From: an uncultured Methanosarcinales archaeon
Lineage (GTDB): Archaea > Nanobdellota > Nanobdellia > Woesearchaeales > GW2011-AR15
Assembly (NCBI GenBank): GCA_964441565.1
Contig: CAYTWW010000002.1
Coordinates: 88,032-152,031, forward strand
Length of the DNA: 64,000 nt
Direction of reading: 5' to 3'
Within the stretch, counting starts at the first letter, position 1. Every line of letters begins with the position of its first letter. The notes beneath the pieces were generated by a model. It searched no databases and was not told where the DNA came from. It saw nothing but the letters and a program-made list of their open reading frames with translations. Both the position numbers and the translations under genes were made by a program. Positions 4,716 through 38,176 of this stretch are shown here, one piece after another.

Positions 4716-4716
4716 T

Positions 4717-6808: not shown

Positions 6809-6809
6809 C

Positions 6810-7202: not shown

Positions 7203-7210
7203 TTTATCTC

Positions 7211-7956: not shown

Positions 7957-7957
7957 T

Positions 7958-9030: not shown

Positions 9031-9036
9031 CTTGGA

Positions 9037-9746: not shown

Positions 9747-9751
9747 TTGGA

Positions 9752-9979: not shown

Positions 9980-10288
9980 CTATTTCGAATGTATGCTTTC
10001 CGGCGCGAAGCCCAGCTCGATGAGGATCTCCCTCACACGATGGATGTGATTTCCCTGGAGCTCGATCTTCCCGCCCTTGCCGGTTCCACCGCAGGCGAGC
10101 TGCTCCTTGAGCTTCCTCAGCACCTCTTTGGTGTCGATCTGCTTCACATCTATCCCTTCGATCAGGGTGTTCTTCTTGCCGAATTTTTTCTTGATCAGAG
10201 ACAAAGTTATCTGCTGTGCCTCCTTAGCGATGCTCTCGCATACGCAAAGCTCTGTCGGTAGTCCGCAGGTTGTGCAAATTTCACTCAT
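9980..10288 (-). CDS. sui1: Translation initiation factor SUI1 (aSUI1/eIF1)
   Basis: 102 aa with an N-terminal C-x2-C-x3-C-x-C motif plus the SUI1 fold motif KFGKKNTLIEGID ... ACGGTG. Confidence 0.85.
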   Translation of the reverse strand: MSEICTTCGLPTELCVCESIAKEAQQITLSLIKKKFGKKNTLIEGIDVKQIDTKEVLRKLKEQLACGGTGKGGKIELQGNHIHRVREILIELGFAPESIHSK

Positions 10289-10469
10289 TTTTGTTTAGCT
10301 TTGTCAGGATCTTTGCGATATTCTTCCTGACCTTCTTGATCTGTCCCGGACTCTTCAGGGTCGTGCCTGTCGCTACCTGCGCATTTAGCTTGATGAGTTC
10401 TTTTTTCATCTCTGACATGGCAGTCTGGAGCTCTTCCGGACTTTTGGAGTTGATTTCCTTATTCTTCAT
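10281..10469 (-). CDS. rpl29: 50S ribosomal protein uL29 (L29)
   Basis: 62-aa helical protein, SPEELQTAMSEMKKELIKLNAQ. Confidence 0.85.
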   Translation of the reverse strand: MKNKEINSKSPEELQTAMSEMKKELIKLNAQVATGTTLKSPGQIKKVRKNIAKILTKLNKNE

Positions 10470-11199
10470 TTTTCTCTTCTTTCTTCTTTTTAGCTCTGGC
10501 CTTCTTAGGCTTCGCTTCCTTGACCTCGGCCTTCACCTCAGCCTTGACCTCTTCTGCGATGGCCTCGGCCTCAGTGCCCTTGACCTCTTCGACAGTAGCC
10601 TCGAAAGGCACCATCTTGACGTCGTCCGGGACCCTTGTGTCAGGTGGCATGATGCTTACCTTGATCCCGACGACACCTGTCTTGAGCTTTGCGATGGCGA
10701 ATGCCACGTCCACGCTCGTGAGAGCGAAGTCGCCGCATTTCTTGAGATATCCCTGGTAGAATCTCCAGGTCCTAGCCCTTGCGCTTGGGATCTTTCCTGA
10801 TATCAGGATCTCGATCCCTCTTGCGCCTGAGCTCATGACGTCTGTCATCGACTTGTGGCCGATGCCCTTGAACCTCATGGATCCGAATTTCTCGAGAGAG
10901 TTCGCGATCCTGTCTGCTACGACCTGTGAGACCAGGTTGACGTTAGGGACTTCGCTTATCTCGATCTGCGGATTCTCGAGCGAGAACCTCTTCTTGAGGT
11001 TCTTTGTGAGCTTCTTGATGTTCGATCCTCCTCCGCCGATGATAAGGCCTGGCCTTGAGGCATATATCACGATCTTCTCTCCGAGAGGGGTCCTCTGGAT
11101 CTTTGTGTGCGAAAGTCCGACTCCTCTGAGATTCTCAGCGATATACTCCTGGATCTGGAACTCCTTGATCTTCTGAGTGACGATTTCTCTCTCAATCAT
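10459..11199 (-). CDS. rps3: 30S ribosomal protein uS3 (S3) with an A/E/K-rich C-terminal tail
   Basis: 246 aa with a KH domain (GVGLSHTKIQRTPLGEKIVIYASRPGLIIGGGGSNIKKL) and a C-terminal EAEAIAEEVKAEVKAEVKEAKPKKARAKKKKEEKNEE tail. Confidence 0.9.
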   Translation of the reverse strand: MIEREIVTQKIKEFQIQEYIAENLRGVGLSHTKIQRTPLGEKIVIYASRPGLIIGGGGSNIKKLTKNLKKRFSLENPQIEISEVPNVNLVSQVVADRIANSLEKFGSMRFKGIGHKSMTDVMSSGARGIEILISGKIPSARARTWRFYQGYLKKCGDFALTSVDVAFAIAKLKTGVVGIKVSIMPPDTRVPDDVKMVPFEATVEEVKGTEAEAIAEEVKAEVKAEVKEAKPKKARAKKKKEEKNEE

Positions 11200-11638
11200 T
11201 TTTAACCTTCTCCTGCTCGGCGAGCACGACCTCTACATGTGTCCTCTTCATCTTCCTTCTCCTGAGCCTTCCGAAATGCCAGGGGCTGGAGGCCTTGTGC
11301 GCGACCATATAGACGATGTAAAGATCGCTTCCGAGCCCTTTGGCTCGTGCATTTGATTCTGCGCTCTCGATGAGCGACATGATCATCTTTGCTGCAGTGA
11401 CAGGGTACCTTCCGGCAGCGATGCCTGGCTTGTGGCCTGTATCCCTGTTGAACCTCTTCATAGGCACTGCCTTCTTCTTGATGATGACCTGTGCGAGGAA
11501 TCTCTTGGCAGCGGCTGTGCTCTTGCCCCTGCATGCGCTGCATATCTCGACAGACTGCTTCATGGAGATGCTGAGGTTCTTGCCCACAGCGAAAGCCATG
11601 TTCTCCTTGAGGCCCTGATAGCTGAGAGTGTATTCCAT
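11192..11638 (-). CDS. rpl22: 50S ribosomal protein uL22 (L22)
   Basis: 148 aa, canonical position. Confidence 0.9.
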   Translation of the reverse strand: MEYTLSYQGLKENMAFAVGKNLSISMKQSVEICSACRGKSTAAAKRFLAQVIIKKKAVPMKRFNRDTGHKPGIAAGRYPVTAAKMIMSLIESAESNARAKGLGSDLYIVYMVAHKASSPWHFGRLRRRKMKRTHVEVVLAEQEKVKND

Positions 11639-11640
11639 CT

Positions 11641-12024
11641 TTACCTCACCGAGATCGCTGCGCTCGATTTTGTCGCGCCGATTCCTGGAGCGCTGTGGTT
11701 GACCCTTCTCCTTGTGAGCGAGAACTCTCCAAGGTAGTGGCCGACCATCTCTGCTGTGATCAGGATCGAGACATACTCCTTCCCATTGAAGACCTTGATC
11801 GTCTTGTCTACCATCTCTGGCACGACGACCATGTCCCTGCAGTGGGTCCTGAGGTTCTTGTCATTCTTCCTGATCTTCTCCATGACCTTCTTGTGCTCTT
11901 CAGATGTGCCCCTCTTCAGGGACCTTCTCTGCCTCGAGTTCATCAGCTTGGATACCTCAGGGATAGACATCTGCTGGATCTCGTCCAGCGTCTTTCCCCT
12001 GTAAAAAAATTCTTTCTTAGCCAT
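11641..12024 (-). CDS. rps19: 30S ribosomal protein uS19 (S19)
   Basis: 127 aa, [30 protein letters not shown]-terminal S19 signature. Confidence 0.9.
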
Positions 12025-12029
12025 TTTGT

Positions 12030-12734
12030 CTACCTTTTCCTGCCTGTCCTTTTTGGATGCATCTTACCGACGTTCCTTCCAGGTGGCGCGTTCTTTGGAG
12101 CTATGGTTGGGAATCCCTTCTTGGATGACCTCGATGTTCCGAATGGATGGTCCACTGCGTTCATCGACTGTCCCTTTACTCTAGGCCACAGCTTGTTCCT
12201 TGCCTTCATATAATGGAATCTTGTACCTGCCTTCAGGAAAGGCTTGTCCTTCCTTCCAGCCCCTGCGATGAGCCCTATGCTTGCCCTGCAGCTTGGATTG
12301 AATGATTTCTGCTTCTTGGATGGAAGCTGGACAATGACCTGCCCATCCCTCTGCGCGACGACCTTGGCATACGCTCCTCCTGCTCGGACGAACTTGCCTC
12401 CATCGCCTGGCATAGACTCGATATTGAATACTTCGGTACCGACAGGGATGCTTGACAGCGGCATTACATTGCCTGTGGCGACGCCTGCCTCTGTGCCCAT
12501 CTTGATCATGTTGCCGACACGAAGGCCAGCTGCTGCGATCATGTAGCTCTCCTCTCCGTTGTCGAGCCTGACCTTGGCCAGCGGAGCTGAATGGCCTGGA
12601 CACTTGACGAAATCCTCGATCCTTCCTTCGCTCTCCCCGCGTGCGTACTTGACCTCTGCCTTGTACCTGAAGCTGGGAGCCGTGTATCGCGGGCCTCCCC
12701 TTCCTCGTGCCTGTGAAATTATATTCTTACCCAT
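12030..12734 (-). CDS. rpl2: 50S ribosomal protein uL2 (L2)
   Basis: 234 aa, highly conserved L2 sequence (GRNxxGxITxRHxGGGHK-type region: [38 protein letters not shown]). Confidence 0.95.
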
Positions 12735-12735
12735 C

Positions 12736-12993
12736 TTACATCAGCCCCAATTGGGTGGCGATATCTATGGCCGGCGTCTCGTCAGAGAAGGTGATGTATG
12801 CCTTCTTCCTGGCATCCGGTCCGATAGCGGTGTTGACTTTCTTTATCTTGACCTTGTACATATCTTCGACAGCCTGCTTGATCTCTTTCTTGTCAGCCTT
12901 GATGTCGACGATGAAGACAAGCGTGTTCTTGGATTCCATAAGCCTTATGGACTTTTCCGTCGCAAGCGGATATTTTATGATGTCTGTGACCAT
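12736..12993 (-). CDS. rpl23: 50S ribosomal protein uL23 (L23)
   Basis: 85 aa, located between L4 and L2. Confidence 0.9.
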   Translation of the reverse strand: MVTDIIKYPLATEKSIRLMESKNTLVFIVDIKADKKEIKQAVEDMYKVKIKKVNTAIGPDARKKAYITFSDETPAIDIATQLGLM

Positions 12994-12994
12994 T

Positions 12995-13855
12995 TTACAG
13001 TTCCTTCTTCACGCTTTTTCTCTTTGGCTTCTCGACAGCAGCCTCTGCTGTCTTCTCAAGGAATAGTCCCTCTGAGAATTTCTCGAGCGCCTTGTCTGTG
13101 AATATTGCCAGCCTTCCGCATACGCCGCCTGGCGCAAGGAGCTCTGCATTCACGTTCTTGGCAAGGCAGACCTGGACCCCAGGTATGTTCTTGGCAGCTC
13201 CCATGAGCTTGCATTTCTCTGAGACGATGATCACAGGCCCGATCTTGCTGACCTTCCTCCTTCCCCTCATCTTTGCCTTTCCAGCACCGACCTTCTTCTC
13301 AGATACTCTCTCGAGCTCCTTGTCGAGTCCTAGCTTGCTGAGCAGGTCCAGGACTTCCTTTGTCTTGCTCAGTCCTTCTGTTCCTGCATCGACGACAAGA
13401 GGGTACTCGGCGATGACATGGCCTCTCTTTGCCACAAGCTCCTTCTGGACGCTTGCCGAGAGAGCTGACCTTATCGCTTTCCTCTTCTCCTTGATATTGA
13501 TCTTCTGTGATACGACCTTGTCGATCTGTGGAGGATGTGCCCTCCTTCCGCCGACGGTGTTAGGTGCGACAGCTCCCACCCAGTTGAACCTTGTTCCCCT
13601 GTGGGACATGATCTTCCTTGGGACCCTGGAGATACCGTGGCCATAGGCTGCTTTCCAGTCTCTCCTTCTCCTGGAGAGCTTTCCTTTCTGCCTCCTACCT
13701 GCATCTGGCTTTGCTCCATAAACCTGGGCCTTGTGGCTCCTGATGGCAAGCACTGCCCTCTTGATGAGGTCTGGCCTTATCTCTTCATCGAACTGCTTGG
13801 GGAATGTGACATCCCCCTTTGCTGTTCCTGTGAGTGTCTTGACTGTAGCTTTCAT
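12995..13855 (-). CDS. rpl4: 50S ribosomal protein uL4 (L4/L1e)
   Basis: 286 aa, L4 core with a K-rich C-terminal extension. Confidence 0.9.
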   Translation of the reverse strand: MKATVKTLTGTAKGDVTFPKQFDEEIRPDLIKRAVLAIRSHKAQVYGAKPDAGRRQKGKLSRRRRDWKAAYGHGISRVPRKIMSHRGTRFNWVGAVAPNTVGGRRAHPPQIDKVVSQKINIKEKRKAIRSALSASVQKELVAKRGHVIAEYPLVVDAGTEGLSKTKEVLDLLSKLGLDKELERVSEKKVGAGKAKMRGRRKVSKIGPVIIVSEKCKLMGAAKNIPGVQVCLAKNVNAELLAPGGVCGRLAIFTDKALEKFSEGLFLEKTAEAAVEKPKRKSVKKEL

Positions 13856-13857
13856 TT

Positions 13858-14847
13858 TTATCTGCCCTGCTTGGATGACTTGCTGATATAGACTATGTTC
13901 GGCACTTCCTTTGTCTTCTTAGGGTTAGGCCTTATCGATGGCGTGAAGATGATGAGCCTCTTCTTTGGGCCTGGTACCGATCCCTCTAGGAGGACGTAGT
14001 CGTTCTTGACAGTCCCGTAGTGCGTGATGCCTCCCTCCTGGGAGACCTCGGTCGCATCAGCAGAGATCTTTGCGATCCGCTTGTTGTATTCTGTCCTCTG
14101 GTGGAAACCCATCTTTCCTGAATGCGCGACCCTCCACATGATGTGGGCCTGTGCGCACCATGGACCAAGTGAGCCTGGATTCCTTGTGGACTTCTCAGAC
14201 TTCTTCTGCCTGAGTGATATACCGAATTTCCTGACAGCTCCCTGGAAGCCTTTCCCCTTGGTGATCGCATGCACGTCGACCTGGTCGCCTTCCTTGTAGA
14301 CATCCGATATCCTGATATCCTTTCCGATATTCTGCTTGGCATATGCGAGCTTCTCCTCGACACTGCCCCCCATCCTCAGCTCGAACATCTCAGGCTTCTT
14401 CTTGATGCCTGTGAACTTTGGCTGGGTGTAGACCATGATCCTTACTTCTGTGAAATCCTTTGCGTCGATCGCCTCTAGCTCCTTCGCAGGATCAGTCTCT
14501 TTCTTGGAACCGATGATCTTCCTCTCCGCTTCCTTGTCAAGCTTTGCTCTTATCTCCTTGACGAGCCTCAGCGTAGGTCCCTTCTTGTAGAACCTGACTG
14601 ATGCGATTTTGATCGGAGGACATTCGACTATTGTTATCGGAACACATATCTCTTCCCCTTTTGTCGACGAGTTCTTGTAGTTGTCGACAACCATCATGTG
14701 GGACATCCCGACCTTGTAGCCGGAGAACCCTAGCATCTTGCAATCCTTGACTGCGGGAGCATTCCTCACTCTAGCATATGACCTCTTTGCTCTGACTCTG
14801 GGCCAAAATTGTAGTGATCCTTGCCTTGGGCTTCTTGTTGTTGCCAT
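13858..14847 (-). CDS. rpl3: 50S ribosomal protein uL3 (L3)
   Basis: 329 aa, first gene of the cluster, conserved L3 sequence (GFSGYKVGMSHMMVVDNYKNS...). Confidence 0.9.
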   Translation of the reverse strand: MATTRSPRQGSLQFWPRVRAKRSYARVRNAPAVKDCKMLGFSGYKVGMSHMMVVDNYKNSSTKGEEICVPITIVECPPIKIASVRFYKKGPTLRLVKEIRAKLDKEAERKIIGSKKETDPAKELEAIDAKDFTEVRIMVYTQPKFTGIKKKPEMFELRMGGSVEEKLAYAKQNIGKDIRISDVYKEGDQVDVHAITKGKGFQGAVRKFGISLRQKKSEKSTRNPGSLGPWCAQAHIMWRVAHSGKMGFHQRTEYNKRIAKISADATEVSQEGGITHYGTVKNDYVLLEGSVPGPKKRLIIFTPSIRPNPKKTKEVPNIVYISKSSKQGR

Positions 14848-14861
14848 TTTTAACTCTATCT

Positions 14862-24515: not shown

Positions 24516-25052
24516 TCACATAACTCTCGCAAGGAACGGAGCGATATTCAGGAACAGCACAAGGTTCACAAGGATATTGCTTATGCTGTACATCAGGTTC
24601 TTGCTGATATCATAATTGAACACGAAATGGTAGAATACGAAAACGAACATGTTCTTGGCGAAAGTGGCAAGCACCCCAAGCCAGAAGAGCGGCAGTGGCA
24701 CATAAGGCACAAGGAAGGCAGCGATCACATTCCCTATCACCATTGGCACCAGGAACGGTGAATAGTATCCATAGAACGCGCTAGACAAGACTGTCCCGAA
24801 TATCGCGATAAGCATCCCTGCCTTCAGCCCGTAATTGATCGTGCACAGCACGATGCCAAGAGTTAGGATCTCTATTTCGATAGGCAGCTGAAAATCCCTC
24901 TTGTAGGCAGAGAGGACGATGTTTCCCACGATGAAGAATGTGACGAATATAGTGGCCTTTATCTCGTTATAGAACAGGAACACAAGAGGCAGCGAGAACA
25001 GCCCTGCGATTATGTACAGGATGATCCTTTTTCTCCTCTTGTTCTTTTCCAT
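24516..25052 (-). CDS. Multi-pass membrane protein, hypothetical
   Basis: 178 aa, 5-6 predicted TM helices, N-terminal KRRKR. Confidence 0.55.
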   Translation of the reverse strand: MEKNKRRKRIILYIIAGLFSLPLVFLFYNEIKATIFVTFFIVGNIVLSAYKRDFQLPIEIEILTLGIVLCTINYGLKAGMLIAIFGTVLSSAFYGYYSPFLVPMVIGNVIAAFLVPYVPLPLFWLGVLATFAKNMFVFVFYHFVFNYDISKNLMYSISNILVNLVLFLNIAPFLARVM

Positions 25053-25086
25053 AAAGAATATAGCCTGCCTGTCCTTTTTCCAAGGG

Positions 25087-25953
25087 ATGCGTGATATAGT
25101 AATTAAGCTTTCTGAAAGGATAAGGAGAGAGTGCTGTTCGCTCGTCCTTCCTGGAGAGAATTACAGGGAGCTGAGTCCATCAGGAGATGATGATCTGACA
25201 TTCATAGACGGAGGGAATGCCGAAGTATTCGCCTCCCCTTCAGTGTCTGTTCACCTCATCCGGCTGCATGCAGTCACCGCTGGCAGCGAGAAGAAGCACT
25301 TCCACAAGGAATTCTTCTGTATCGCGACGATGGAAGGGAGGAAGGCGAGAGTAGAGGCTTTGGACCAGGAGTTCCCCTCCCTCGACATCGAGGTCGACAA
25401 GGATAGCACATGCGGTTCAGCATGCGATGCCTTCAGGAGGTTATCTGAGCTGAGGTTCGCTCTTGGATTCAAGACACCTGTCGTGCTCGATGGCAGCTTC
25501 GAGACACGCACAGATGAGGATAAAGCCCTTGTCCAAGACCTTCTGACGAAGAGATCATGCGCCATATCCAAGACATGTTCCCTCCTGTCTGATGAAGGTT
25601 ACTCGCTTGCTGCTGCAAGCATGAGATGCTCCCCATTCCCGCTATTCTCATACCAGCTCCCAGCGAAAGGATTCTGCTCATACCTTGTCAAGCTGCACAA
25701 GTCATCTAAGCATGCATTCCGTCTGGACTGCTCAGACACATTCAGGGATGCGCCTTCCAGCTTGGTGAGATTCTGCTCAGACCCTATCTTCCCAGGTTAT
25801 CCCTATCCGCTAATCGAAGCAGACAAGCTTGCCCGAATCTCGAAGAAGGAAGCAGGCTCCATCCGCCTCAGATTGACGCTTGCACTCGACAAGGATGGAG
25901 AACTGCTGCAGAATTCCAGTACTGCGCATGACATACTTGACAACGTGCAGTAG
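25087..25953 (+). CDS. Hypothetical protein (faint resemblance to NurA/RNase-H-like nucleases, unverified)
   Basis: Start re-chosen at MRDIVIKL; the ORF-track extension overlaps the divergent membrane-protein gene. LTFIDGGNAEVF is an early acidic motif reminiscent of the NurA IDGS motif, but there is no further support. Confidence 0.45.
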   Translation: MRDIVIKLSERIRRECCSLVLPGENYRELSPSGDDDLTFIDGGNAEVFASPSVSVHLIRLHAVTAGSEKKHFHKEFFCIATMEGRKARVEALDQEFPSLDIEVDKDSTCGSACDAFRRLSELRFALGFKTPVVLDGSFETRTDEDKALVQDLLTKRSCAISKTCSLLSDEGYSLAAASMRCSPFPLFSYQLPAKGFCSYLVKLHKSSKHAFRLDCSDTFRDAPSSLVRFCSDPIFPGYPYPLIEADKLARISKKEAGSIRLRLTLALDKDGELLQNSSTAHDILDNVQ

Positions 25954-28401: not shown

Positions 28402-30384
28402 CTAATACACTGCCACATACTTGACAATGCTGCACTCCCTGACATCCTTGACTGTGCAGAACCTCTGGATCTTCTCCTTGACAGAATCCAGGGACACTTT
28501 CGGCTCCATCTGTTCTGCAGGTGCCTCAGCGAATGATATCCTGTCATAGCATGCGACCTTCGAAAGATGGGAGAATATGTGTTTTTCAGACAGGCGCATG
28601 CCTGATCCATCTACATCTATAAGCCCTTGCGCCACCAGGCTTGCCACGACTTCCCCTATCCCGAGCCCAAGCTGCTTTGCCATGTCCTCTTCAGTGAATG
28701 TGCCAAGCTTGAAAGCCTGATGCAGCACTTTTATCTGGTCCTTCGATAGCCCTGCGAGCTCTGGCAGCCTTTTCGTCCGCATGGTCTCGATGTCTGTCAC
28801 GATCTCCCCGTTCTCCATCTCGCAGAGCAGGTTGAATTCCATGCCCTTCTCAGAGCATAGGAACATATAGGCAGGTATAAGCACTGTCTCCACCTTGGAC
28901 ACCTTCTTCTCGCTCATCAGCTCGATGTCCTTGGGTGACATCTTCGGTTTCACCAGAGGGATCATCTTCTTCTCCTCGAACTCTGTCAGTTTGTCGAAGA
29001 ACTTTCCTTCATTCTGCTCAAGCATCTCTACAGCATGTCCTCCATGCTGCGTCAGCCTTGGCCTGATGTTCACGAATAGCGGCATGTCTGCTATGCCTGT
29101 GATCAGAGCTGAACCGATAGGCAGGTTCTTAATCTCGCTCTCAGACTCGGCTGTGATACCCTCGACAGAGCTTGCGATCGCCTTCAGGTCACTGGGGTTC
29201 GTGACCTTCAGGATTATTTGTGTCGTGCACTGCGAGACGACAGACTTGTCTATCCTAGCAGGCCTCTGCGTTATCAGGCAAAGCCCGAGCCCGAACTTCC
29301 TCCCCTCTGATGCGACAGTACGCAGGATCTTCGAGCATCTCGCTTCTCCAAACGACCTCTCAGGGCAGAAGTTATGCGCTTCCTCGATCACACAGAAGAA
29401 CGGTGGCACCTTGTCTTTCTTCCTCAGCTCAAACAGGTCTTTCAGAAGCTTGTACAGGAGTATCTCAGTCACATCAGGATTCATGCCCTTGAGATTGATG
29501 ACAGTGCATTTCCCCGGCTGGACAAGCTCGTTGTAAGGAGAATAGCTATCTGTGAAGATATCAAGGTTCTTCAGGTACTCAAGGTTGTTGATGAGCGTCC
29601 ATTTGGCGGTATTCTCTTCCTTGTCGAGCGCGAACAGGACATTTGTGAAGTTGATCTTGTCAAGATGCTTGATCGCGCTGTATAGGATCCCCAGCTGCGT
29701 GTTGGACAGCTTTCCAGGTATGAGCTGGATTATCTCCGCAGGTGTCAGCTCGCTGTTGAGTTTTAGCGGACGAAGACTTGGATTCAGAGATGGATCTCCG
29801 AATTCCTGGACATTACTGAATGCCTTCGGCACAAGCCCGAACTTCGTCAGATTCTCCTTCTCCTCGGTGTTTGCATGCTTGAGCGAGGAGTACTCGCCAT
29901 GCGGATCGATTATCACGATAGGGACATTCTTCCCTATTATCTCCTCGACAAGGACCCCTGTCGTGTATGATTTGCCTGAACCTGATTTCGCCAGCACTAT
30001 CACATGCTTTGTCAGAAGCTTCGTGAGGTCCAGGTAGATGTCGATATCCTTTCCTTCGAGCTTTCCCACATATGCCCCCTTCTCAGTCTGCGGAAGGGCT
30101 ATGACTGACCTGACGAAATCATCCTCAGCACGAAGGACCTCAGAATTCTGGTCGAAAGGTATCCTTATGGACTTTATCCTGCCTTTGTCATCCTTATAAC
30201 CGATGACTGTGCATCTAGCGACATCCTTGTCAGTCCTCTCGATCTCCATTACCTGGCATAGCACCCAGTCATACACCTTGTGCATGACCTGGACGAACTC
30301 GAACTTCCTCGTCTCCTTCTCGACAATGAACTGGAAGTCGGTCGTGGTTATCTTGCCGAAGATATGTCCAAGGATCATCTGCAC
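28402..30384 (-). CDS. HerA/FtsK-superfamily (DUF87) P-loop ATPase with N-terminal HAS-barrel-like region
   Basis: 660 aa. Walker A is VLAKSGSGKSYTTGVLVEE and Walker B/DEAH-like is FFCVIEEAHNF. TQRP motif is LITQRPARIDKSV. The C-terminal region is helical and HTH-like. Confidence 0.8.
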   Translation of the reverse strand: MQMILGHIFGKITTTDFQFIVEKETRKFEFVQVMHKVYDWVLCQVMEIERTDKDVARCTVIGYKDDKGRIKSIRIPFDQNSEVLRAEDDFVRSVIALPQTEKGAYVGKLEGKDIDIYLDLTKLLTKHVIVLAKSGSGKSYTTGVLVEEIIGKNVPIVIIDPHGEYSSLKHANTEEKENLTKFGLVPKAFSNVQEFGDPSLNPSLRPLKLNSELTPAEIIQLIPGKLSNTQLGILYSAIKHLDKINFTNVLFALDKEENTAKWTLINNLEYLKNLDIFTDSYSPYNELVQPGKCTVINLKGMNPDVTEILLYKLLKDLFELRKKDKVPPFFCVIEEAHNFCPERSFGEARCSKILRTVASEGRKFGLGLCLITQRPARIDKSVVSQCTTQIILKVTNPSDLKAIASSVEGITAESESEIKNLPIGSALITGIADMPLFVNIRPRLTQHGGHAVEMLEQNEGKFFDKLTEFEEKKMIPLVKPKMSPKDIELMSEKKVSKVETVLIPAYMFLCSEKGMEFNLLCEMENGEIVTDIETMRTKRLPELAGLSKDQIKVLHQAFKLGTFTEEDMAKQLGLGIGEVVASLVAQGLIDVDGSGMRLSEKHIFSHLSKVACYDRISFAEAPAEQMEPKVSLDSVKEKIQRFCTVKDVRECSIVKYVAVY

Positions 30385-30411
30385 AGAAAAAAGCCCGGCG
30401 CTTTAAATTAT

Positions 30412-32244
30412 TTATGTGCCGTATGCGTAATGATGATAGACCTGATTTGGGGACAGTAGCCTCCTTATCAGGTATGCTCTCGCTCTGCCTTCTTCCTGTG
30501 CGACGGCGAGATCCTCAGGCGCCAAGTCTCCATTCGTCCTCCTCCTTGTGATGCCCATGTATCCCTTATCTATAAGGAATTCCACCATTGCGAGCTGCCA
30601 GTTCCTGTAGGCTTCATGTGATTGCTGTTGCGCATCCTCCTGCAATGCGTCCTCAAGCGTCGTCTTCGCTTGGAACTCCGCGGCATACACCCTGTCGCCC
30701 CAGCTGCTCGGTGCAGTCTCGATCCTGAGATGGAGTGCATTGTAGTCACGATCCTGATCAGAGATGTAATCTTCAAACGCATCCTCATCCACCCAATTGA
30801 CGAAGATGCCTGCATGCGGCTCAGGCTTCTTTATCAGGACAACTTCTTCATCTGGCACCATGTGGCCGATCTTTTCCCTGTATTTGGAGATAATGAACGG
30901 TTCGATCGTCGTATATGCGATACCTTCACGCTCATAGATCGGGGCTGACCGTATGAGCCTGCGATCCTGCTTGCTGACTAGATCTATCAACGCATTCTTC
31001 TGCTCTTCTGTAAGGAGCACAAGCACACTCCCTATATGCTTTGTGATATTTGAGACAAGGTCCCCGTACCTGACTGCGTAAGGCCGTATGTCAGAAAGAG
31101 GACGTCCGACTAGATGTTCAGCCAGGGAATACAGGGTACTGTATGCCTGTTCTTCTCCGCCTGCCAATGCTTCCCTATCAAAGTCCCTGATATCGGCAGG
31201 CACCTGCGCCCCAGAAAATATCACTCTTATCCTATGGAGGTCGCTCAGGTCCCTCGGACTCGGCCTCCTTCTGAAATCAATGCCCTTTGACTCCATGAAA
31301 TCCTGAAGCTCGCCTGACTCGTACGCCTGCTGGAGGACTGGGGTGTGCTGCTGGAGGATGAACTTGTCAGGGAATGACTCGCCTTTGATGCCGTATGAGA
31401 TGAAGATATGCTTGGAGGGGATATGTTGCTCAGCAGCCTCTGATATCGACTGGATGATAGTGTCCTTGATCCTGGGATTCTTGAAGATCGATTTCTTGGG
31501 AAGGTCATCCAGATGCTCCCTCACAAGATCTGAGAGATTGACCGTCAGGAGGATTGTCTGATCAAGAGCATCATATAAGCTTAGGTAGTCCGATCCTACA
31601 CCTACAGCACTGCTGATCTGGTCATAGAGGTCTTTTTCATCCTCGAACCATTGTGAAAGCTCAGCATAGGCCTTCTTGATTATGCTCTGTTCCAGAAGAG
31701 GCTTATCTACCTTTGGCCTGAACAGCATCACTCTGCCCACATAATGGACGTCGGTCTCCCCACCGCATCTCCTGCAGCTGATCCTGCCTCTGTCCAGGTT
31801 CTCATCATGATGTGAGTAGAGGAATTGCGATCTCGAATAATGCTGCCTTGCTTCCTGTATCACGGCTCCTATGTCCCCTGCATCAGGTTCCGTAGGTATC
31901 AGCGCCCTGGCGACCATGGTGGGATAAGCATGATTATGGCATGTCTCATTCACAAGGAGATAGTGGCTCACTTCAGGATCGCTGACAAGGTTGGCGGCCC
32001 AGCCTGATATCCTGGAGACCACGGTCTGGACGAAAGTGAAACCATGGTCCTTCTCAGTATCAAACTTCTCCAGGAAGCCTGATGCCATCTTCAGGACGTC
32101 TGCCCAGCTATCCTGCAGATACTGGATGGATCGTGTCCGCTCTTCCCGGAACAGTCCCTTCTCCAGCTGTGCAAGGTCCGTGCTGATTATATGCTCCAGA
32201 GACCTCATCATGCTAGTGATTTGTGAAAGCTTAATTAAAAACAT
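30412..32244 (-). CDS. Large hypothetical protein (610 aa) forming a tight pair with the HerA-like ATPase
   Basis: 27-bp gap to the downstream ATPase gene on the same strand. Contains a C-x2-C element (SCRRCGGETDVHYVG) and no recognised catalytic motif. Confidence 0.6.
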   Translation of the reverse strand: MFLIKLSQITSMMRSLEHIISTDLAQLEKGLFREERTRSIQYLQDSWADVLKMASGFLEKFDTEKDHGFTFVQTVVSRISGWAANLVSDPEVSHYLLVNETCHNHAYPTMVARALIPTEPDAGDIGAVIQEARQHYSRSQFLYSHHDENLDRGRISCRRCGGETDVHYVGRVMLFRPKVDKPLLEQSIIKKAYAELSQWFEDEKDLYDQISSAVGVGSDYLSLYDALDQTILLTVNLSDLVREHLDDLPKKSIFKNPRIKDTIIQSISEAAEQHIPSKHIFISYGIKGESFPDKFILQQHTPVLQQAYESGELQDFMESKGIDFRRRPSPRDLSDLHRIRVIFSGAQVPADIRDFDREALAGGEEQAYSTLYSLAEHLVGRPLSDIRPYAVRYGDLVSNITKHIGSVLVLLTEEQKNALIDLVSKQDRRLIRSAPIYEREGIAYTTIEPFIISKYREKIGHMVPDEEVVLIKKPEPHAGIFVNWVDEDAFEDYISDQDRDYNALHLRIETAPSSWGDRVYAAEFQAKTTLEDALQEDAQQQSHEAYRNWQLAMVEFLIDKGYMGITRRRTNGDLAPEDLAVAQEEGRARAYLIRRLLSPNQVYHHYAYGT

Positions 32245-32290
32245 TGCCGTAACCTAAAAGAAAAACAGCAGTTTTTTCAAGTATGAAGGA

Positions 32291-32758
32291 TTGCATGCAG
32301 GGATGGACAGGCTTATCGCCCTAAATTCGAAAGAGATCAAGGAGATCTCAAAGGAGATCGAGGACAACTATGGGGCAGGCTTCGATTTCTCAAGATATGG
32401 TGTCTACAAGAGCGGCAAGGATAAGGTCTACATTATAAATAGGGAAGCTACTGCTCTCGACTTCGATGAGCTCCGAGTCAATACCCTTGGTCTGTATTTC
32501 TGCGACATGTCAGGAGAGGAGATAAGGCTATCGATGGAAGGGTCTTTCCTTGTATCGAAGACAGCTAAGAAAGGCATCCTCGACATCGGAGACGATGATG
32601 CTGTCCTATGGTTGTCTGGAAAGGATCTTGAGTTGAAGGCTGAGAGAGGTTTCCTGATCATCCGGAACAGGGGAGATATCCTGGGTTCAGGCAAATCCAC
32701 AGGCAGGCTAATACTCAATTACCTCCCTAAGACAAGGCGGTTAAAAGCGGAATCCTGA
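32291..32758 (+). CDS. Nip7-like/PUA-domain small protein (tentative)
   Basis: 155 aa. N-terminal NYGAGFDFSRYGVYKSGKDKVYIINREA and C-terminal GFLIIRNRGDILGSGKSTGRLI are PUA-like. It sits in the 0.48-kb gap between the HD gene and the 610-aa gene, on the opposite strand. Confidence 0.45.
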   Translation: MHAGMDRLIALNSKEIKEISKEIEDNYGAGFDFSRYGVYKSGKDKVYIINREATALDFDELRVNTLGLYFCDMSGEEIRLSMEGSFLVSKTAKKGILDIGDDDAVLWLSGKDLELKAERGFLIIRNRGDILGSGKSTGRLILNYLPKTRRLKAES

Positions 32759-34259
32759 TCCCTGGTGCTGAGTATGGAAGTCGGATGAGCGCCCTTGAAT
32801 CAGGCACATATCCGCCTCGCATGTTCTTCGATTGCGAAGCCTTGGCAAGAGCATTGAATGACAGCATCTCAGCATAGAACTGTTCGACCGAATCCAGGGA
32901 TACAAGGCCTCTGTATCCTGTGTCTGCCACTGGGTTTGAAGGGTCGACCTGGGAAGAAAGCCGTCCGATGGTATCCTTGAAATGGTATTCCTTGTTCATT
33001 CTCTTCTCAAACCAGCTGACAGCTATGCCTGGCGACCTGTCCCTCTTCTGGAACATCCCCTTCCTATCATACGACAAGGCCCCCTCATATACCTTTGAGA
33101 GTTGTTTCCATAGCATATCCGAGGATATCTTCCTTGGCTTCTCTCCCCTCAGCTGAGAGTATTTCATTATCTTCTCCGCAAGCCCCTGGAGTTCATCATC
33201 ATCGCTTATCCTGTCTACAACCCGTTCGGTATCGTTTATGATCGCCTGGGCTAGTGCCATCCTCATCCCGAACAGCATTGGTGCCCTTGGGCCTTCAGCA
33301 ATCATCTCCACTGTCTCGTTCTGCAGTGCCCAGTTCCTATAATGCGTCTCCCTCTTCCCCTCTGTCCTGTCTACGAGAACATATTTGAGGGTATCGATGT
33401 CTTCAGGCTTTGTATCACGCGTGAAATCGAATGTGTATTCCCTTTCAGTATTATGGATCCTGTCAGCGAACTTGACAGATACTACAACATCCCTCACCAC
33501 AGTATCCTTGACTGAGAGCATCCTCTGGATGTACTCGACATATGACTCGAAAGGGCTTCGGGTTATCGCCTTAAGCCCATCTGAAAGCTGTCTCTCAAGG
33601 ATATCATCTCCCAGATCAAGATACCCTACGACGATATTGATGATCCGATCCCTCTCTGAGATATACTCCTGCTCCATTTGCCCAAGCTGTCTTTGCGCCT
33701 TGTCGATGAGCGCCAGATACATAGAAGGAAGCCTGCCCATACCCTCCCTTGTCTCTTTTCGCAACTGGTTTATCTGGCTCCTGTATTTCTCCTTGAACTC
33801 TGGAAGATCCTCTATCGTGTCATGCAGGAGAGACAGGTAGGACATGAATGGGCTCCCGAAGTCTCCCGCCAGCCTGTCTGCGATCAGTGAGACACCGATC
33901 ACATGAGAAAGCCTTGATTTCTCAGGGGAGAACTTCCTCCTCTTGTCTTTCCTGTTTTCGAAATCATAATAGATATGCTTGTCAAGATTGAGAATCCTTA
34001 TCAGCACGTCACTATCAAGTGCATCATCATGCCTGAGAGAATAATCGCTCGCCAGCCTCCTTGCGATAGGAGCCAGCCTTTTCCTCAATGGTGCTCTGCT
34101 GATGAAATCATCAAGCTCAAACATGCCATATGTGCTGGCCTTCAAAACATAAGGATCGAGCAGGTCTCCGATAGCTATGCCTTCATGGGACAGCATGACT
34201 GCTCTCTCTGTGATACCGTCGATGGATTCCTGCGTCAGAAGCTCCTCAAGGTCAGGCAT
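32727..34259 (-). CDS. HD-domain protein with RelA/SpoT-type (p)ppGpp-hydrolase-like signature, plus N- and C-terminal extensions
   Basis: 510 aa. SHVIGVSLIADRLAGDFGSPFMSYLSLLHDTIEDL carries the H...HD motif, and about 130 aa later VKFADRIHNTERE echoes the RSH hydrolase block (cf. KLADRLHNMR). Confidence 0.6.
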   Translation of the reverse strand: MPDLEELLTQESIDGITERAVMLSHEGIAIGDLLDPYVLKASTYGMFELDDFISRAPLRKRLAPIARRLASDYSLRHDDALDSDVLIRILNLDKHIYYDFENRKDKRRKFSPEKSRLSHVIGVSLIADRLAGDFGSPFMSYLSLLHDTIEDLPEFKEKYRSQINQLRKETREGMGRLPSMYLALIDKAQRQLGQMEQEYISERDRIINIVVGYLDLGDDILERQLSDGLKAITRSPFESYVEYIQRMLSVKDTVVRDVVVSVKFADRIHNTEREYTFDFTRDTKPEDIDTLKYVLVDRTEGKRETHYRNWALQNETVEMIAEGPRAPMLFGMRMALAQAIINDTERVVDRISDDDELQGLAEKIMKYSQLRGEKPRKISSDMLWKQLSKVYEGALSYDRKGMFQKRDRSPGIAVSWFEKRMNKEYHFKDTIGRLSSQVDPSNPVADTGYRGLVSLDSVEQFYAEMLSFNALAKASQSKNMRGGYVPDSRALIRLPYSAPGIRIPLLTALS

Positions 34260-34343: not shown

Positions 34344-34802
34344 TTATCCGGTCTCACCACGGTTCCATATCCTATCTCCCACATGATGGATGTTCCTTAT
34401 CACCTTTCCTGTTGCCATCGCATCCATCTTCACAGAATCGAACATGGCGATACCGACTGCAAGAGGTCTCCTGTTGTTGATGTCTACGACAGAGACTACA
34501 TCGCCTTCACCAAATGTAGGGATCTCCTTTATCCCTGGCCGCATGATGTCTGCCCCTGATGCAACGAATCTCACAGCACCCATATCGACCACGATCTGCT
34601 TGAGGAAATTATCAGTTAGGAGCATCCTCAGGACAGGAACCGGATGATTTTCATATAGGAAGAACCTGAGTTCCTCGTTCACCAGTATAAGGTCCTCATC
34701 AAGTTCCACCTTGTCTTTCTTGTCCACAAGCTCTCTTCCATACCTTTCGACTACTGTCGAGAATAGTTCCCTTATCTCCTTGTTCTTCAGATGCCTTTTC
34801 AT
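34344..34802 (-). CDS. PUA-domain protein (archaeal small PUA family)
   Basis: Start re-chosen at MKRHLKNKEIRELF. C-terminal PUA motif VRFVASGADIMRPGIKEIPTFGEGDVVSVVDINNRRPLAVGIAMFDS. Confidence 0.6.
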   Translation of the reverse strand: MKRHLKNKEIRELFSTVVERYGRELVDKKDKVELDEDLILVNEELRFFLYENHPVPVLRMLLTDNFLKQIVVDMGAVRFVASGADIMRPGIKEIPTFGEGDVVSVVDINNRRPLAVGIAMFDSVKMDAMATGKVIRNIHHVGDRIWNRGETG

Positions 34803-35185
34803 CTTATCTCGATTGTCGCAGACGCTGCAGGATCCTTCAGATGCTCGACGATCCTCCTGTCTATGTCGCATGCTGCCTTCGTCGCCCTTGTCCCAAGAGT
34901 CCTGCTGCTCAGGAATGAGCTCCTCCGCAGGACTATCTCATGCTCATCATCAAAAGCATGGTTGACCTCTGCGGTGAAACTGTCTGAGATACCTTTTGCA
35001 AAGATGGTGACAGTGATGTGATCCTTATCTCTGATATGGTCAGACAGCTCTTTAAGGCCATAATCAGCCCTGATTCCTAGTATGCAGTCACCATTAAGGC
35101 TTAGAGCATCATCCTTGGTGAACTCGATTGTGTTCCTGTGCTCTGACCTTGTATTCTTGTGTCCGTGCACAGTGAACCTGATCAC
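34799..35185 (-). CDS. DUF371-like archaeal protein
   Basis: 128 aa. FTVHGHKNTRSEHRNTIEFTKDD matches the conserved N-terminal block I remember for DUF371. It is adjacent to the PUA gene, as is common for that family. Confidence 0.45.
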   Translation of the reverse strand: MIRFTVHGHKNTRSEHRNTIEFTKDDALSLNGDCILGIRADYGLKELSDHIRDKDHITVTIFAKGISDSFTAEVNHAFDDEHEIVLRRSSFLSSRTLGTRATKAACDIDRRIVEHLKDPAASATIEIR

Positions 35186-35540: not shown

Positions 35541-36176
35541 ATGGACCTGCTAGCGCTATCAATCAATATCAGGCAACTCTTCCTTGGAAGCGAGAGGAAT
35601 TTCTTTGGGCTTCCTGTTGACCAGAAACATAGGGGAAAGATAATATCCATCAATTCATACTACAGGAGATTCTCCCTGAAGCATGCTGGGGCACTCCCGA
35701 CAAAGACCCACGCCCAGTTCATTGTCTGGAAGACCAATCACAGGCTAAGGCTCGGCTTCCCTGTAGGCTGGTATATGTACGGACCCTTCTGTCCTATACC
35801 CTTCGGTTTCTCTTTCAGGGACAACCTGAATGATGAAGAGAAGAATGTCGTCGAGAAGGCTGCCATCGACCTGATGAGGTTTGGGACGCTGAAGCTTGAG
35901 AGGATCGCTTCTGTCTATCAGCCAATCCATGAGGCGCGGCTGGACATAGTGCATGGTAAGCGCAGAGATGCATTCGTCAATCTGAGAAGGCATGCTCCGC
36001 CAGAGACCAGGGATCTGATACGCCCTTGCGAAGGCGAGCAGTTCGCTTCATTATGGCGCTACATCTCGCTCGTGCGGCTCCGGGACTCCCTGAGGTTCTA
36101 CTATGGAAAGCGTATAGATCTTTACCTATGGAGACAGATCCTGAGAGCCAGGAGGATGGTTCAGCAGGCTGAATAG
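35541..36176 (+). CDS. Hypothetical protein
   Basis: 211 aa with no motif; 16-nt convergent overlap with the 671-aa gene. Confidence 0.4.
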   Translation: MDLLALSINIRQLFLGSERNFFGLPVDQKHRGKIISINSYYRRFSLKHAGALPTKTHAQFIVWKTNHRLRLGFPVGWYMYGPFCPIPFGFSFRDNLNDEEKNVVEKAAIDLMRFGTLKLERIASVYQPIHEARLDIVHGKRRDAFVNLRRHAPPETRDLIRPCEGEQFASLWRYISLVRLRDSLRFYYGKRIDLYLWRQILRARRMVQQAE

Positions 36177-38176
36177 TTCGTTCGGAGGAAATCGATTATT
36201 GAGCTTGAGCCCCTTCTTGTGAAATGAAGATATTTGATACCTCTCTTGTCGCATTCTGATTTCACTGGACCATAGCAGTCATGGTCGATATTTGGTGTGA
36301 TGAATATGATCAGATCCATTTGCCCTGCCTGCTGAGCATCTCTTCTGGGATTCTGCCGATGATAGACAGTTGTCGGGACAGGTATCGTCTTTTCGATGAT
36401 GTGAGCAGTCTCTGAAGAATAGTCGCCTCCATAGATATGGATATTTGAGAACCTTTCTAGATGCAGGCTATCAGTCAGGGTCTGAGCAGAAGCAAGGTCT
36501 GGATTCCTTGCTTGTGATTCAGGCAGTAGGCGAGCGCAAAGGCCAGCGTATATGTTTCCTTGAAGTTCAAGCCTACCCAGTCTCTGCCCGGATTCAAGAA
36601 GGCTTTGGTATGCTGCCCAGAGGCACACATCTGATAGGAGTATCTTGATCATTGAGCTTTGATTTTCTTGTAGATCATTCGACATGAGCAGGGCCTGTTG
36701 AAGCCCTTTATCGGCGATAGTCCAGAACCTGCCCTGCATTCCATCTGGAAGGCAGGAGAATCCCTGACTCACTGATCGAGCATCCTCGATTCCTAGAGAA
36801 GAGATATATGCATCGAATCTGCTCTGTCTCTGCTGTGATGCCACAGCTCTGGCTTTGCTGATCCTTCTCTCGAGTGTCTCCAGGTTTCCTGCTTTGAACC
36901 CAGGCTCAATATCTCCATCTATCTTATTCAATGCACTGCGGATCGTCTTGAGCCTGGTCTGGTTCGGTTGCTGAAGGGCAGTATCCAACAGCAAGGCAGC
37001 CTTGTTGACATACCCTGACCTGACCATGGTGAAATAATCCTTGAGCACCAATTCTGCCATGCTGTACCTTTCGGTCACATCAATGATCCTATCATGGCTG
37101 TCGGCTGAGAAAAGGATCTCGATGTTCTCAAGGAGGACTCCGGCTCCTTTCCATTGGTAAGGTTTTTCAAGTCCTAGGAGGAATTCTTCGAAGGTGCCAT
37201 TGCCAAAAGGCATCCTGAACCATGGCATCCCCCCGATCACAGCTCTTGATCCTGCCCCTGTGGTCTTTGCAAGCTTAAGGATGCCGGGATTTCTTGCCAG
37301 CTCATCAAGCAGGCAATCTCTGTTCTCAGGAGCTTCAGCCTTCAGGAGCCTGAGAGCTGTGCCTGGCTCATCTATCATAGCCAGCTTCTCAGCGACATAT
37401 CCTATGGGAGGTGATTCGCGTCTCCTGTCGAGGAGCTTGTATATCTCGATCCAGCTCTGCCTTGTGAGTACCTTGTATGATTCCTCCAAGTCCTGCATCA
37501 TCAGGACGATCGGGTCTAGCCTCTGTGCCTCGGAGAACAGACCGATTGTGACCTCTGTATCTGTCTTGTAGACTTCTCTTATGAGGATATTCCTCTCTCG
37601 CGTCGCCTCAATCAGATCTTCCAGATACAGGTTGGTGGCTACTGGCCCTGCTGCTTCGAATATCGAAGTAGCGATCCCCACCAGCTCTTCAAGATTTGAG
37701 ACCTTCTTATGGTAGTCTCCCATGGATTCATCGCAATACAGCTTGATCCTTGTCAGAGGATAGACATAAGGGACTTCATAGAAGTTGTGCTTCTGGGGTA
37801 TCTTGACATCCCCAGCCAACATCACTGCTTCCAATACCTTCTCGTCGCTTGGATTGATGCGTGCCACCTTCTGAGCAGTGCCAAGGCAGCTGAGGCCATA
37901 GTTCCAGTCCGCATAGTCTGCAAGTGTTGAAAGGAATTTGCGTGCTCTCTTGAGGAAATCCTGGGAAGCTCCTGTGATCAATGGCTCAAGATCCAGCTGA
38001 AGGCTGACAGCAGGAGATACCTGAGGCAGGGCTTTATCGAAAAGCCTTCTCGCATCCTCGAGAGCGATGTTATAGAGCCACGCCATTGCTGCTGAGACTA
38101 CAGCTCTCTTGTCCTCGTACTCCTCTCTATCCTTTTCAAGCTCCCTTTCAAGGCGTTCCTTTTTCTTTCTACTCAC
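36161..38176 (-). CDS. Large hypothetical protein (671 aa)
   Basis: Long ORF with good coding appearance and an N-terminal KE-rich coiled segment. No catalytic motif recognised. Its start lies 42 bp from the tRNA 3'-end duplicate. Confidence 0.55.
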   Translation of the reverse strand: MSRKKKERLERELEKDREEYEDKRAVVSAAMAWLYNIALEDARRLFDKALPQVSPAVSLQLDLEPLITGASQDFLKRARKFLSTLADYADWNYGLSCLGTAQKVARINPSDEKVLEAVMLAGDVKIPQKHNFYEVPYVYPLTRIKLYCDESMGDYHKKVSNLEELVGIATSIFEAAGPVATNLYLEDLIEATRERNILIREVYKTDTEVTIGLFSEAQRLDPIVLMMQDLEESYKVLTRQSWIEIYKLLDRRRESPPIGYVAEKLAMIDEPGTALRLLKAEAPENRDCLLDELARNPGILKLAKTTGAGSRAVIGGMPWFRMPFGNGTFEEFLLGLEKPYQWKGAGVLLENIEILFSADSHDRIIDVTERYSMAELVLKDYFTMVRSGYVNKAALLLDTALQQPNQTRLKTIRSALNKIDGDIEPGFKAGNLETLERRISKARAVASQQRQSRFDAYISSLGIEDARSVSQGFSCLPDGMQGRFWTIADKGLQQALLMSNDLQENQSSMIKILLSDVCLWAAYQSLLESGQRLGRLELQGNIYAGLCARLLPESQARNPDLASAQTLTDSLHLERFSNIHIYGGDYSSETAHIIEKTIPVPTTVYHRQNPRRDAQQAGQMDLIIFITPNIDHDCYGPVKSECDKRGIKYLHFTRRGSSSIIDFLRTNYSAC

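Follow-up and report, generated by a model that had tools for sequence, protein, structure and literature searches.

Is a HerA-type ATPase whose gene directly follows that of a large protein of no evident family the partner of that protein? The question is raised by a 64,000-nucleotide stretch of contig CAYTWW010000002.1 (positions 88,032 to 152,031, forward strand; hereafter the window) from an uncultured archaeon placed among the Woesearchaeales, in which a gene for a 610-amino-acid (610-aa) protein is followed on the same strand by a HerA gene and preceded, beyond a small gene on the opposite strand, by a gene for a 510-aa protein. A first-pass annotation, made from the DNA letters, had proposed that HerA and the 610-aa protein form a defence-like module, and had likened the 510-aa protein to the hydrolase domains of RelA/SpoT homologues (RSH), the enzymes at the core of the bacterial stringent response. 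We report here that, judged by profile comparisons, the 610-aa protein belongs to a divergent archaeal family with an RSH synthetase domain, and that the 510-aa protein very likely contains an HD domain, probably of the RSH type. Our favoured reading, which we hold to be rather probable, is that the region encodes a split RSH synthetase/hydrolase pair of a DPANN archaeon that is tied to translation, and that HerA is not a partner in it. The placements of the open reading frames (ORFs) and the motifs quoted in the first-pass annotation were re-derived from the window sequence, and all were present.

A divergent archaeal family with an RSH synthetase domain

By itself, the 610-aa protein matched nothing in Pfam, NCBIfam or PADLOC, and a word-index homologue search with it returned no relatives. 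Exhaustive searching of 1.84e9 cluster representatives with phmmer yielded 16 distant homologues of 417-595 aa, with 26-32% identity. A profile made from the homologues, with the window protein excluded, matched the 610-aa protein in one stretch covering residues 16-563 (E = 2.2e-72); on this criterion of sequence similarity, it is a full-length member of a small, fast-evolving archaeal family. The family alignment used below contains 17 sequences, i.e., the 610-aa protein plus the 16 homologues. The gene and the parts of its product are as follows (all on the minus strand):

30412-32244: 610-aa gene, a member of the divergent archaeal RSH synthetase-domain family (phmmer homologues, family profile)
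31420..32244 (residues 1-275): N-terminal alpha/beta domain, a separate domain in the structural model, with confidence scores (predicted local distance difference test, pLDDT) mostly of 85-97
30556..31419 (residues 276-563): RSH synthetase-like (SYNTH) domain, the C-terminal half, assigned from Pfam, PDB and hhalign matches of the family
30826..31083 (residues 388-473): insertion of about 86 aa in the SYNTH domain, a gap in all other family members, with pLDDT below 50

The Pfam family RelA_SpoT (PF04607) was matched by 15 of the 17 aligned sequences, with a best E value of 7.7e-11, and by a partial family member on another locus (L117) at 6.7e-18. When compared with the PDB, the family profile matched RelP/YwaC (6fgk; E = 1.5e-9), RelSeq (1vj7; 3.4e-7) and E. 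coli RelA on the ribosome (1.4e-6), and in a search of 5.8e9 proteins it reached bacterial bifunctional (long) Rel at an E value of 4e-5. Comparison of the family with an alignment of bacterial Rel proteins, using hhalign, gave a probability of 94.6% (E = 6.7e-8).

The columns of the family alignment that are invariant are S144, E148, K287, K294, D335, D492, E523 and H543 (numbering of the window protein). K287, K294, D335, E523 and H543 fall on the positions of Syn1, Syn2, Syn4 and Syn5, as these motifs are described in the RSH literature, and all of them are kept in the window protein. Its motifs read K287-x2-S290-x3-K294 (Syn1), D335..R340 (Syn2), Y501..H505 (Syn3), E523-F-Q525 (Syn4) and H543-x2-Y546-R547 (Syn5). 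As far as homology and motifs can identify it, the C-terminal half of the family is a RelA/SpoT synthetase domain in which the catalytic motif residues have been retained. The first-pass annotation had recognised no domain in the 610-aa protein apart from a C-x2-C element. That description stands for the single sequence, in which C157-x2-C160 is indeed present, and gives way to a RelA/SpoT synthetase domain once the homologue profile is used. NurA was considered as an identity for the protein and rejected, the protein being RSH-like.

A model of the 610-aa protein generated by AlphaFold2 (AF2) from the family alignment had a mean pLDDT of 78.9 and a predicted template modelling score (pTM) of 0.79; the pLDDT of a single-sequence model was 37.5. 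In the C-terminal half of the model, the order of strands and helices fits the order of the motifs, and Foldseek gave no significant match between the whole model and the PDB. The N-terminal domain carries a conserved HSDLxYSHHxE motif, which includes the invariant S144 and E148, as well as C157-x2-C160. Neither sequence comparison nor Foldseek revealed a match to this domain in the PDB. These histidines and cysteines represent a possible metal site.

The 510-aa protein as a candidate RSH-type hydrolase

The second protein of interest is encoded upstream, also on the minus strand:

32727-34259: 510-aa gene, probable RSH-type HD protein (motifs and hhalign)
33444..33947 (residues 105-272): HD region of the 510-aa protein, with R107/R108, H119, H146-D147, E150-D151, D266 and H269-N270

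No Pfam, NCBIfam or PADLOC model matched the 510-aa protein above threshold. It contains the motifs SHVIGV (with H119), LLHDTIED (146-151) and KFADRIHN (263-270), so that the metal ligands H119, H146, D147 and D266, the ED dyad E150-D151 and N270 are all present; about 50 aa are inserted between the two HD motif blocks. Below threshold, generic Pfam HD matched residues 116-169, with E values of 0.056 for the full protein and 0.0099 for a fragment (aa 104-320), at 14.2-16.6 bits against a cut-off of 22. HD_4, the RSH-type family (PF13328), matched residues 204-271 with an E value of 0.057 (13.6 bits) for the full protein and 0.006 (16.8 bits) for the fragment, the cut-off being 27.2. These two sub-threshold matches are collinear.

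As a reference we used an alignment of the HD domains of human and Drosophila Mesh1 and T. thermophilus Rel, which was checked against PDB entries 3nr1, 3nqw and 7ohg. Residues H119, H146-D147, E150-D151, D266 and N270 of the 510-aa protein align to H35, H61-D62, E65-D66, D122 and N126 of Mesh1. With hhalign, residues 105-153 matched Mesh1 21-68 with P = 1.4e-4 and 35% identity, over 48 columns only; the match spans R..H-x-IGV and the LLHDTIED motif, which is LLHDTVED in Mesh1. Residues 261-272 (SVKFADRIHNTE) aligned with Mesh1 117-128 (LVKLADKLYNLR) with P = 0.009, over only 12 columns. Independently, the bacterial Rel alignment paired residues 98-162 with Rel 50-111 (P = 0.0075). As controls, 13 other proteins or protein clusters from similar loci were compared with the Mesh1/Rel HD domain, and all gave P values of 0.12 or above. 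When the 510-aa sequence was shuffled 300 times, the highest score was 23.0, compared with 36.8 observed, i.e., none of the 300 shuffles reached it.

From these sequence matches, we consider an HD domain in the 510-aa protein very likely, and its assignment to the RSH type probable. The RelA/SpoT-like signature that the first-pass annotation had noticed in this protein is upheld at the level of motifs and profiles, and the RSH hint is reinforced because the neighbouring 610-aa protein is of the matching RSH synthetase type. The HD region is flanked by about 100 extra N-terminal and about 240 C-terminal residues that have no assigned function. The idea that the 510-aa protein is a divergent paralogue of the 610 family was rejected (hhalign probability 0.2%).

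In a variant from the same population (locus L002, 5586-7149, on contig Ga0226655_10002812), the 510-aa gene is called as two ORFs, of 427 and 109 aa. An HTH_10 gene is likewise split in that variant, and both splits could represent either assembly frameshifts or real gene decay.

HerA is not linked to the 610 family

The gene downstream of the 610-aa gene, and the spacer between them, are as follows (both on the minus strand):

28402-30384: HerA ATPase gene (ORF call; 658-660 aa)
30385..30411: spacer from the 610-aa stop to the HerA start, 27 nt, ATAATTTAAAGCGCCGGGCTTTTTTCT (direct reading)

The identification of the product as a HerA/DUF87 ATPase is sound, with E values of 3.4e-32 for Pfam DUF87 and 7.6e-32 for S. 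solfataricus HerA (PDB 4d2i). The spacing had been described as a tight pairing. The 27 bp gap is present when HerA is taken to start at GTG, and becomes 33 bp with the ATG used in public gene calls. However, 27-33 bp is about the median same-strand gap in the gene table of this contig, the genome being compact. The pairing is therefore not unusually tight, and the spacing is weak evidence of coupling. The spacer also contains a T6 run and, some 28 nt before the HerA ATG, a TATA-like A/T box, and from these letters we infer that it would allow the transcript of the 610-aa gene to terminate and HerA to initiate independently.

Linkage was examined from both sides. We found 183 relatives of HerA, and kept 80 loci (38-68% identity, with up to 10 kb on each side), in which all ORFs were searched with the 610-family profile and the window proteins. 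A 610-like or 510-like ORF was present within 10 kb in none of the 80, and HerA was present in none of the eight informative loci of the 610 family described in the next section. The closest HerA orthologues, with 64-68% identity, come from metagenome-assembled genomes (MAGs) labelled Woesearchaeota, and one labelled "uncultured Methanosarcinales". About 50 more, with 44-55% identity, are in MAGs of Woesearchaeota or Nanoarchaeota, from which we conclude that the window derives from a Woesearchaeota-like DPANN archaeon. The relatives as a whole span MAGs of DPANN, of euryarchaeal groups (Thermoplasmata, ANME-1 and Halobacteria), of Nitrosotalea and of Bathyarchaeia. The non-DPANN relatives (ANME-1, Halobacteria, Nitrosotalea and Bathyarchaeia) are about 42% identical, and genes for Sua5/YrdC and/or AspRS flank 11-13 of these loci. 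The two closest relatives have unrelated neighbours, i.e., an epimerase and an Asn-synthase-like gene in one, and in the other a phosphodiesterase plus the PfkB kinase that the window also has. By its score, this HerA is remote from the NCBIfam anti-phage HerA equivalogs (103 and 79 bits, against cut-offs of 800 and 850) and from the NCBIfam HerA equivalog (136 bits, cut-off 970). By sequence and gene context, it is a conserved, housekeeping-type archaeal HerA paralogue that adjoins a 610-aa gene only in this lineage.

These results bear on the proposal that HerA and the 610-aa protein, possibly together with the 510-aa HD protein, form one defence module, in which a HerA hexamer would scaffold or activate an RSH-type toxin in the manner of Sir2-HerA. 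The proposal has a rationale, in that HerA-family ATPases pair with effectors in known anti-phage systems and RSH synthetases can be abortive-infection toxins (the toxSAS/CapRel literature; 10.1101/575399). Among the PADLOC HerA models, the best match to this protein reached 8e-41. The two genes share a strand, with a gap of 27-33 bp, and three independent metagenome contigs from this population show the same arrangement. Set against this are the lack of linkage in the 80 HerA loci and in the eight family loci, the unrelated neighbours of even the closest orthologues, and the archaea-wide distribution of this orthologous group with its Sua5 and/or AspRS flanks. The anti-phage scores fall far below the cut-offs, PADLOC recognised neither the 610-aa nor the 510-aa protein, and the gap is a median one that contains its own TATA-like element and T6 run. 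An origin as a genomic island was also considered and rejected, since composition does not vary along the window, in which neither tRNA genes nor Rfam matches were detected. We regard the defence module as highly improbable. On present evidence HerA is not a functional partner of the 610-aa protein, and a false lead is removed, the adjacency being an accident of how genes are ordered in this one lineage, whose genome is compact.

Many of the HerA orthologues from Woesearchaeota and Nanoarchaeota (loci L015-L057), including the closest, have in common with the window protein a C-terminal extension of about 200 aa (residues ~460-660, window 28402-29000), which in the window HerA includes a helix-turn-helix-looking stretch, FTEEDMAKQLGLGIGEVVASLVAQGLIDVDG. 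The distant non-DPANN orthologues (L064-L094) match residues 1 to ~455 only. An ORF of 288-313 aa lies 2.4 kb from HerA on the opposite strand (25012-25953, plus strand; 25087-25953 according to gene callers). Its matches to Pfam NurA (E = 8.8e-4; 19.3 bits, below the cut-off of 21) and to NCBIfam NurA_Sulf (E = 0.039) are weak, the PDB gave no sequence match, and the neighbourhoods of the other 80 HerA orthologues contained no homologue. The ORF could encode a highly diverged NurA that partners this HerA.

A variable slot among translation genes

If not with HerA, with which genes does the 610 family travel? In the window, the genes that proved to be syntenic markers are:

32291-32758 (ORF; listed as 32303..32758), plus strand: PUA-like (Nip7/RsmF-PUA-like) gene, matching Methyltranf_PUA (RsmF-type PUA-like) at 4.9e-9
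34344..34802, minus strand: PUA-domain protein (eIF2D-type PUA), Pfam PUA 6.7e-17
34799..35185, minus strand: DUF371 protein (MTH639-like), Pfam DUF371 3.2e-31

The PUA-like gene is the small opposite-strand PUA/Nip7-like gene of the first-pass annotation. It overlaps, and is convergent with, the 510-aa gene, and is divergent from the 610-aa gene. The starts of the two divergent genes are only 46-58 bp apart (window 32245-32302), which leaves little space for two promoters.

The genomic context was looked up for nine members of the 610 family. One contig was too short, leaving eight informative loci, some of them on short contigs that show the RSH-like gene with a single flank. In all eight, this gene lies downstream of DUF371 (sometimes with KsgA and a PUA gene between), or is convergent on the PUA-like gene, or both. 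The PUA-like gene adjoins the RSH-like gene in seven of them and is 0.4 kb away in the remaining one (L013). The PUA-domain gene occupies the same position in L010-L012 and L176, and the DUF371 gene is present in L004-L013, L175 and L176. The consensus neighbourhood is DUF371–PUA–[RSH]–PUA-like, usually followed by aIF5B, Trm1 and aEF-1beta, and genes for Drg GTPase, L37ae, prefoldin, L21e or Rpb4 are often nearby. In at least eight divergent lineages, in other words, the family holds the same conserved position, surrounded by genes for translation and ribosome biogenesis. The neighbourhood comparison that had been suggested for the 610-HerA pair ties the family to translation genes and not to HerA, an outcome that the first-pass annotation had itself listed as one that would refute its proposal.

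In the window, the slot between the PUA/DUF371 genes and the PUA-like gene, where relatives have the RSH-like gene, is filled by the 510-aa gene, and the 610-aa gene is found immediately on the far side of the PUA-like gene, with HerA next after it. The order 510-aa, PUA-like, 610-aa, HerA was seen only in contigs of this population. JGI metagenome contigs of up to 186 kb, and an NCBI contig of 220 kb, carry these same proteins. Elsewhere, the slot is hypervariable. The DUF371–PUA–PUA-like cluster has an empty slot in four metagenomic relatives (L107, L130, L150 and L160), and in others among L095-L174 the slot holds one to three unknown genes without a Pfam match. Two clusters of such slot genes, B and C, were weakly similar to the 610-family alignment (hhalign P = 2e-4 and 4e-4). 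Another was weakly 510-like, with P = 1.3e-3, which is not significant after 55 comparisons, and none of the slot clusters tested matched the Mesh1/Rel HD domain. The slot may harbour a fast-evolving cassette of HD and SYNTH proteins, the signals for which are below significance and serve as a lead only. Separately, HD..ED-like motifs were noticed in some slot genes (L104 4338-5798 and L097 11563-12375).

The nearness of the two genes recalls a type IV toxin-antitoxin pair of the FaRel/ATfaRel kind, in which the 610-aa protein would be a toxSAS toxin and the 510-aa protein its small alarmone hydrolase (SAH) antitoxin, which would make the whole a selfish element or a defence element and not a physiological regulator. 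Genes of the two expected kinds, RSH synthetase-like and RSH-type HD, do lie within 0.5 kb of one another, SAH antitoxins are known to neutralise toxSASs (10.1101/575399), and the family evolves fast (26-32% identity). However, the two genes are not bicistronic, having the opposite-strand PUA-like gene between them, their products are 2-3 times the size of toxSAS and SAH proteins, and in most loci of the family the synthetase has no HD gene next to it. That the family keeps to a single conserved position on the chromosome, among translation genes, in eight or more divergent lineages argues for vertical inheritance rather than mobility. We therefore view a toxin-antitoxin pair as very unlikely.

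As to the other genes, the DUF371 product matches PDB entries 7y7n and 3cbn, both uncharacterised proteins, and a literature search found nothing on DUF371, its matches concerning unrelated DUF371x families. In L013 (4507-5643), the gene immediately before the RSH-like gene encodes a fusion of DUF371 with a HAD-family hydrolase domain, a possible hint to the function of DUF371. Further away in the window, a 671-aa protein (36161-38176, minus strand) has only a weak C-terminal match to DUF2325 (E = 7.5e-5, below the cut-off) and is conserved on related contigs. Positions 4000-14850 contain a dense run of short ORFs, all on the minus strand, with pronounced AT and GC skew, and look like a ribosomal-protein operon.

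A possible archaeal synthetase/hydrolase system

How might such a pair work? By analogy with characterised RSH synthetases, the 610-aa protein would bind ATP·Mg via Syn1 and Syn2 and, using E523, would transfer pyrophosphate (the beta and gamma phosphates of ATP) to an acceptor's 3'-OH, the acceptor being bound by the Tyr and His of Syn3. The acceptor might be GDP/GTP or ADP/ATP, generating an alarmone of the (p)ppGpp or (p)ppApp type; alternatively, it might be the CCA 3' end of tRNA, as in the toxSAS enzymes. The 510-aa protein would then act as a metal-dependent HD pyrophosphohydrolase that removes the 3'-pyrophosphate and resets the signal. The 610-aa protein may sense or dock through its N-terminal His/Cys domain, and translation may be the process that is sensed or controlled. 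Translation is the likely output because the 610 family is embedded among genes for PUA proteins, KsgA, aIF5B and ribosomal components. At its fullest, this would mean that the 610 family and the 510-aa HD protein constitute an RSH system that is native to archaea and inherited vertically, and by which DPANN archaea control translation, through an alarmone or through reversible pyrophosphorylation of tRNA or of a ribosome-associated substrate, with sensing by the N-terminal His/Cys domain. We put this extended version forward tentatively, as a possibility that is somewhat doubtful in its entirety.

Several observations weigh against a split synthetase/hydrolase pair. On the synthetase side, the 610-aa protein alone matches neither Pfam RelA_SpoT nor the Rel alignment, so that its assignment is transitive, via the family. 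It has Gly in place of the first Syn1 Arg, and Asp in place of the Gly that precedes the Syn3 Tyr, and its SYNTH domain is interrupted by the lineage-specific insertion of about 86 aa; with these substitutions and the insertion, its activity could be altered or lost. On the hydrolase side, the 510-aa protein scores below every curated threshold, its specificity as an RSH rather than a generic HD domain rests on short motifs, and a word-index search for homologues returned only the protein itself. A gene on the opposite strand intervenes between the 510-aa and 610-aa genes, and most loci of the family lack a detectable HD gene beside the synthetase. Finally, tests of archaea for (p)ppGpp have so far all failed to detect it (PMC8646023).

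Some of these points would be expected if the two genes were unrelated neighbours, the 610-aa protein being a degenerate or re-purposed RSH fold (a pseudo-enzyme, or a transferase acting on some other substrate) and the 510-aa protein a generic HD phosphohydrolase. The 610-aa protein is the most divergent member of its family, with the changes next to Syn1 and Syn3 and the 86-aa insertion just mentioned, although K287, K294, D335, E523 and H543 have all been kept. Similarly, the 510-aa protein, for which the word-index search found no homologues, scores equally poorly against HD and HD_4, and its best PDB sequence matches are Cas3 HD domains (E = 0.4). However, it has the ED dyad and the D-x3-N helix typical of RSH hydrolases, which go beyond a generic H..HD, and its match to Mesh1/Rel is well above the controls. 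Gene order is fluid across Woesearchaeota in this region, as would suit a chance juxtaposition, but the occurrence by chance of both halves of the RSH toolkit within 2 kb seems improbable to us. Overall, we judge unrelated neighbours to be an unlikely explanation, and retain the split RSH pair, in which the two proteins would be functionally paired.

How new is such a locus? RelA/SpoT homologues were annotated in 41.7% of Woesearchaeota MAGs in a survey of DPANN archaea, where they were listed but not analysed (PMC8407392), and Atkinson et al. (2011), whose search yielded very few RSHs from archaea, attributed these to horizontal gene transfer (PMC3153485). In view of these literature annotations, RSH-like genes in DPANN are not new as such. 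What appear to be undescribed are the architecture with the N-terminal domain, the extreme divergence, the fixed synteny with translation genes, and the neighbouring candidate for an RSH-type HD protein. The 610 family is more divergent than Pfam can see in single sequences, yet its catalytic residues have been kept. If a native RSH system that controls translation were confirmed, it would be the first native stringent-response-like system in Archaea. The locus supplies expressible proteins with which to test for archaeal alarmones or tRNA 3'-pyrophosphorylation.

Comparison with known systems

With the HerA-NurA and HerA-effector systems, such as Sir2-HerA, the locus has in common a bona fide HerA/DUF87 gene directly downstream of that for a larger same-strand protein. 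Unlike in those systems, the upstream protein is neither NurA nor a known effector, the adjacency occurs in 0/80 orthologue loci, and the HerA belongs to a housekeeping-type group. With the toxSAS enzymes (FaRel, FaRel2, PhRel2 and CapRel), the common features are an RSH synthetase domain outside the long-RSH architecture and a possible SAH-type counter-enzyme nearby; given the translation-gene context, a tRNA 3'-end acceptor like theirs is conceivable for the 610-aa protein by analogy. Unlike a toxSAS, the 610-aa protein is not bicistronic, small, sporadic or mobile, and lies in a core-genome slot, with no PADLOC match.

On the hydrolase side, the 510-aa protein shares R..H(x26)HD..ED...D-x3-N with the RSH HD domains (PF13328) of Mesh1, PbcSpo and ATfaRel. 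It differs from the SAHs in that it falls below the Pfam threshold, has the insert of about 50 aa and the extra residues (about 100 N-terminal and 240 C-terminal), and has no detected homologues. However, its LLHDTIED and KFADRIHN motifs are nearly identical to LLHDTVED and KLADKLYN of Mesh1.

For the synthetase, the relevant comparison is with RelQ/RelP and the SYNTH domain of the long RSHs, i.e., Rel, RelA and SpoT (PF04607). Outside the motifs, the similarity of the 610-aa protein to these enzymes is very low, and the single sequence escapes Pfam. Its N-terminus is a novel alpha/beta domain of 275 aa, where RSH synthetases have an HD domain or nothing, and unlike the long RSHs it has no TGS or ACT domains. 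The 86-aa insertion, the archaeal (DPANN) host and the synteny with DUF371, PUA and aIF5B genes also set it apart. Nevertheless, the family profile matches RelP, RelQ, RelSeq and RelA over Syn3-Syn5, with a weak collinear match at Syn1, and, like the RSH synthetases, the 610 family keeps the Lys/Ser/Lys, Asp, Tyr..His, Glu-x-Gln and His..Tyr-Arg/Lys residues of the motifs.

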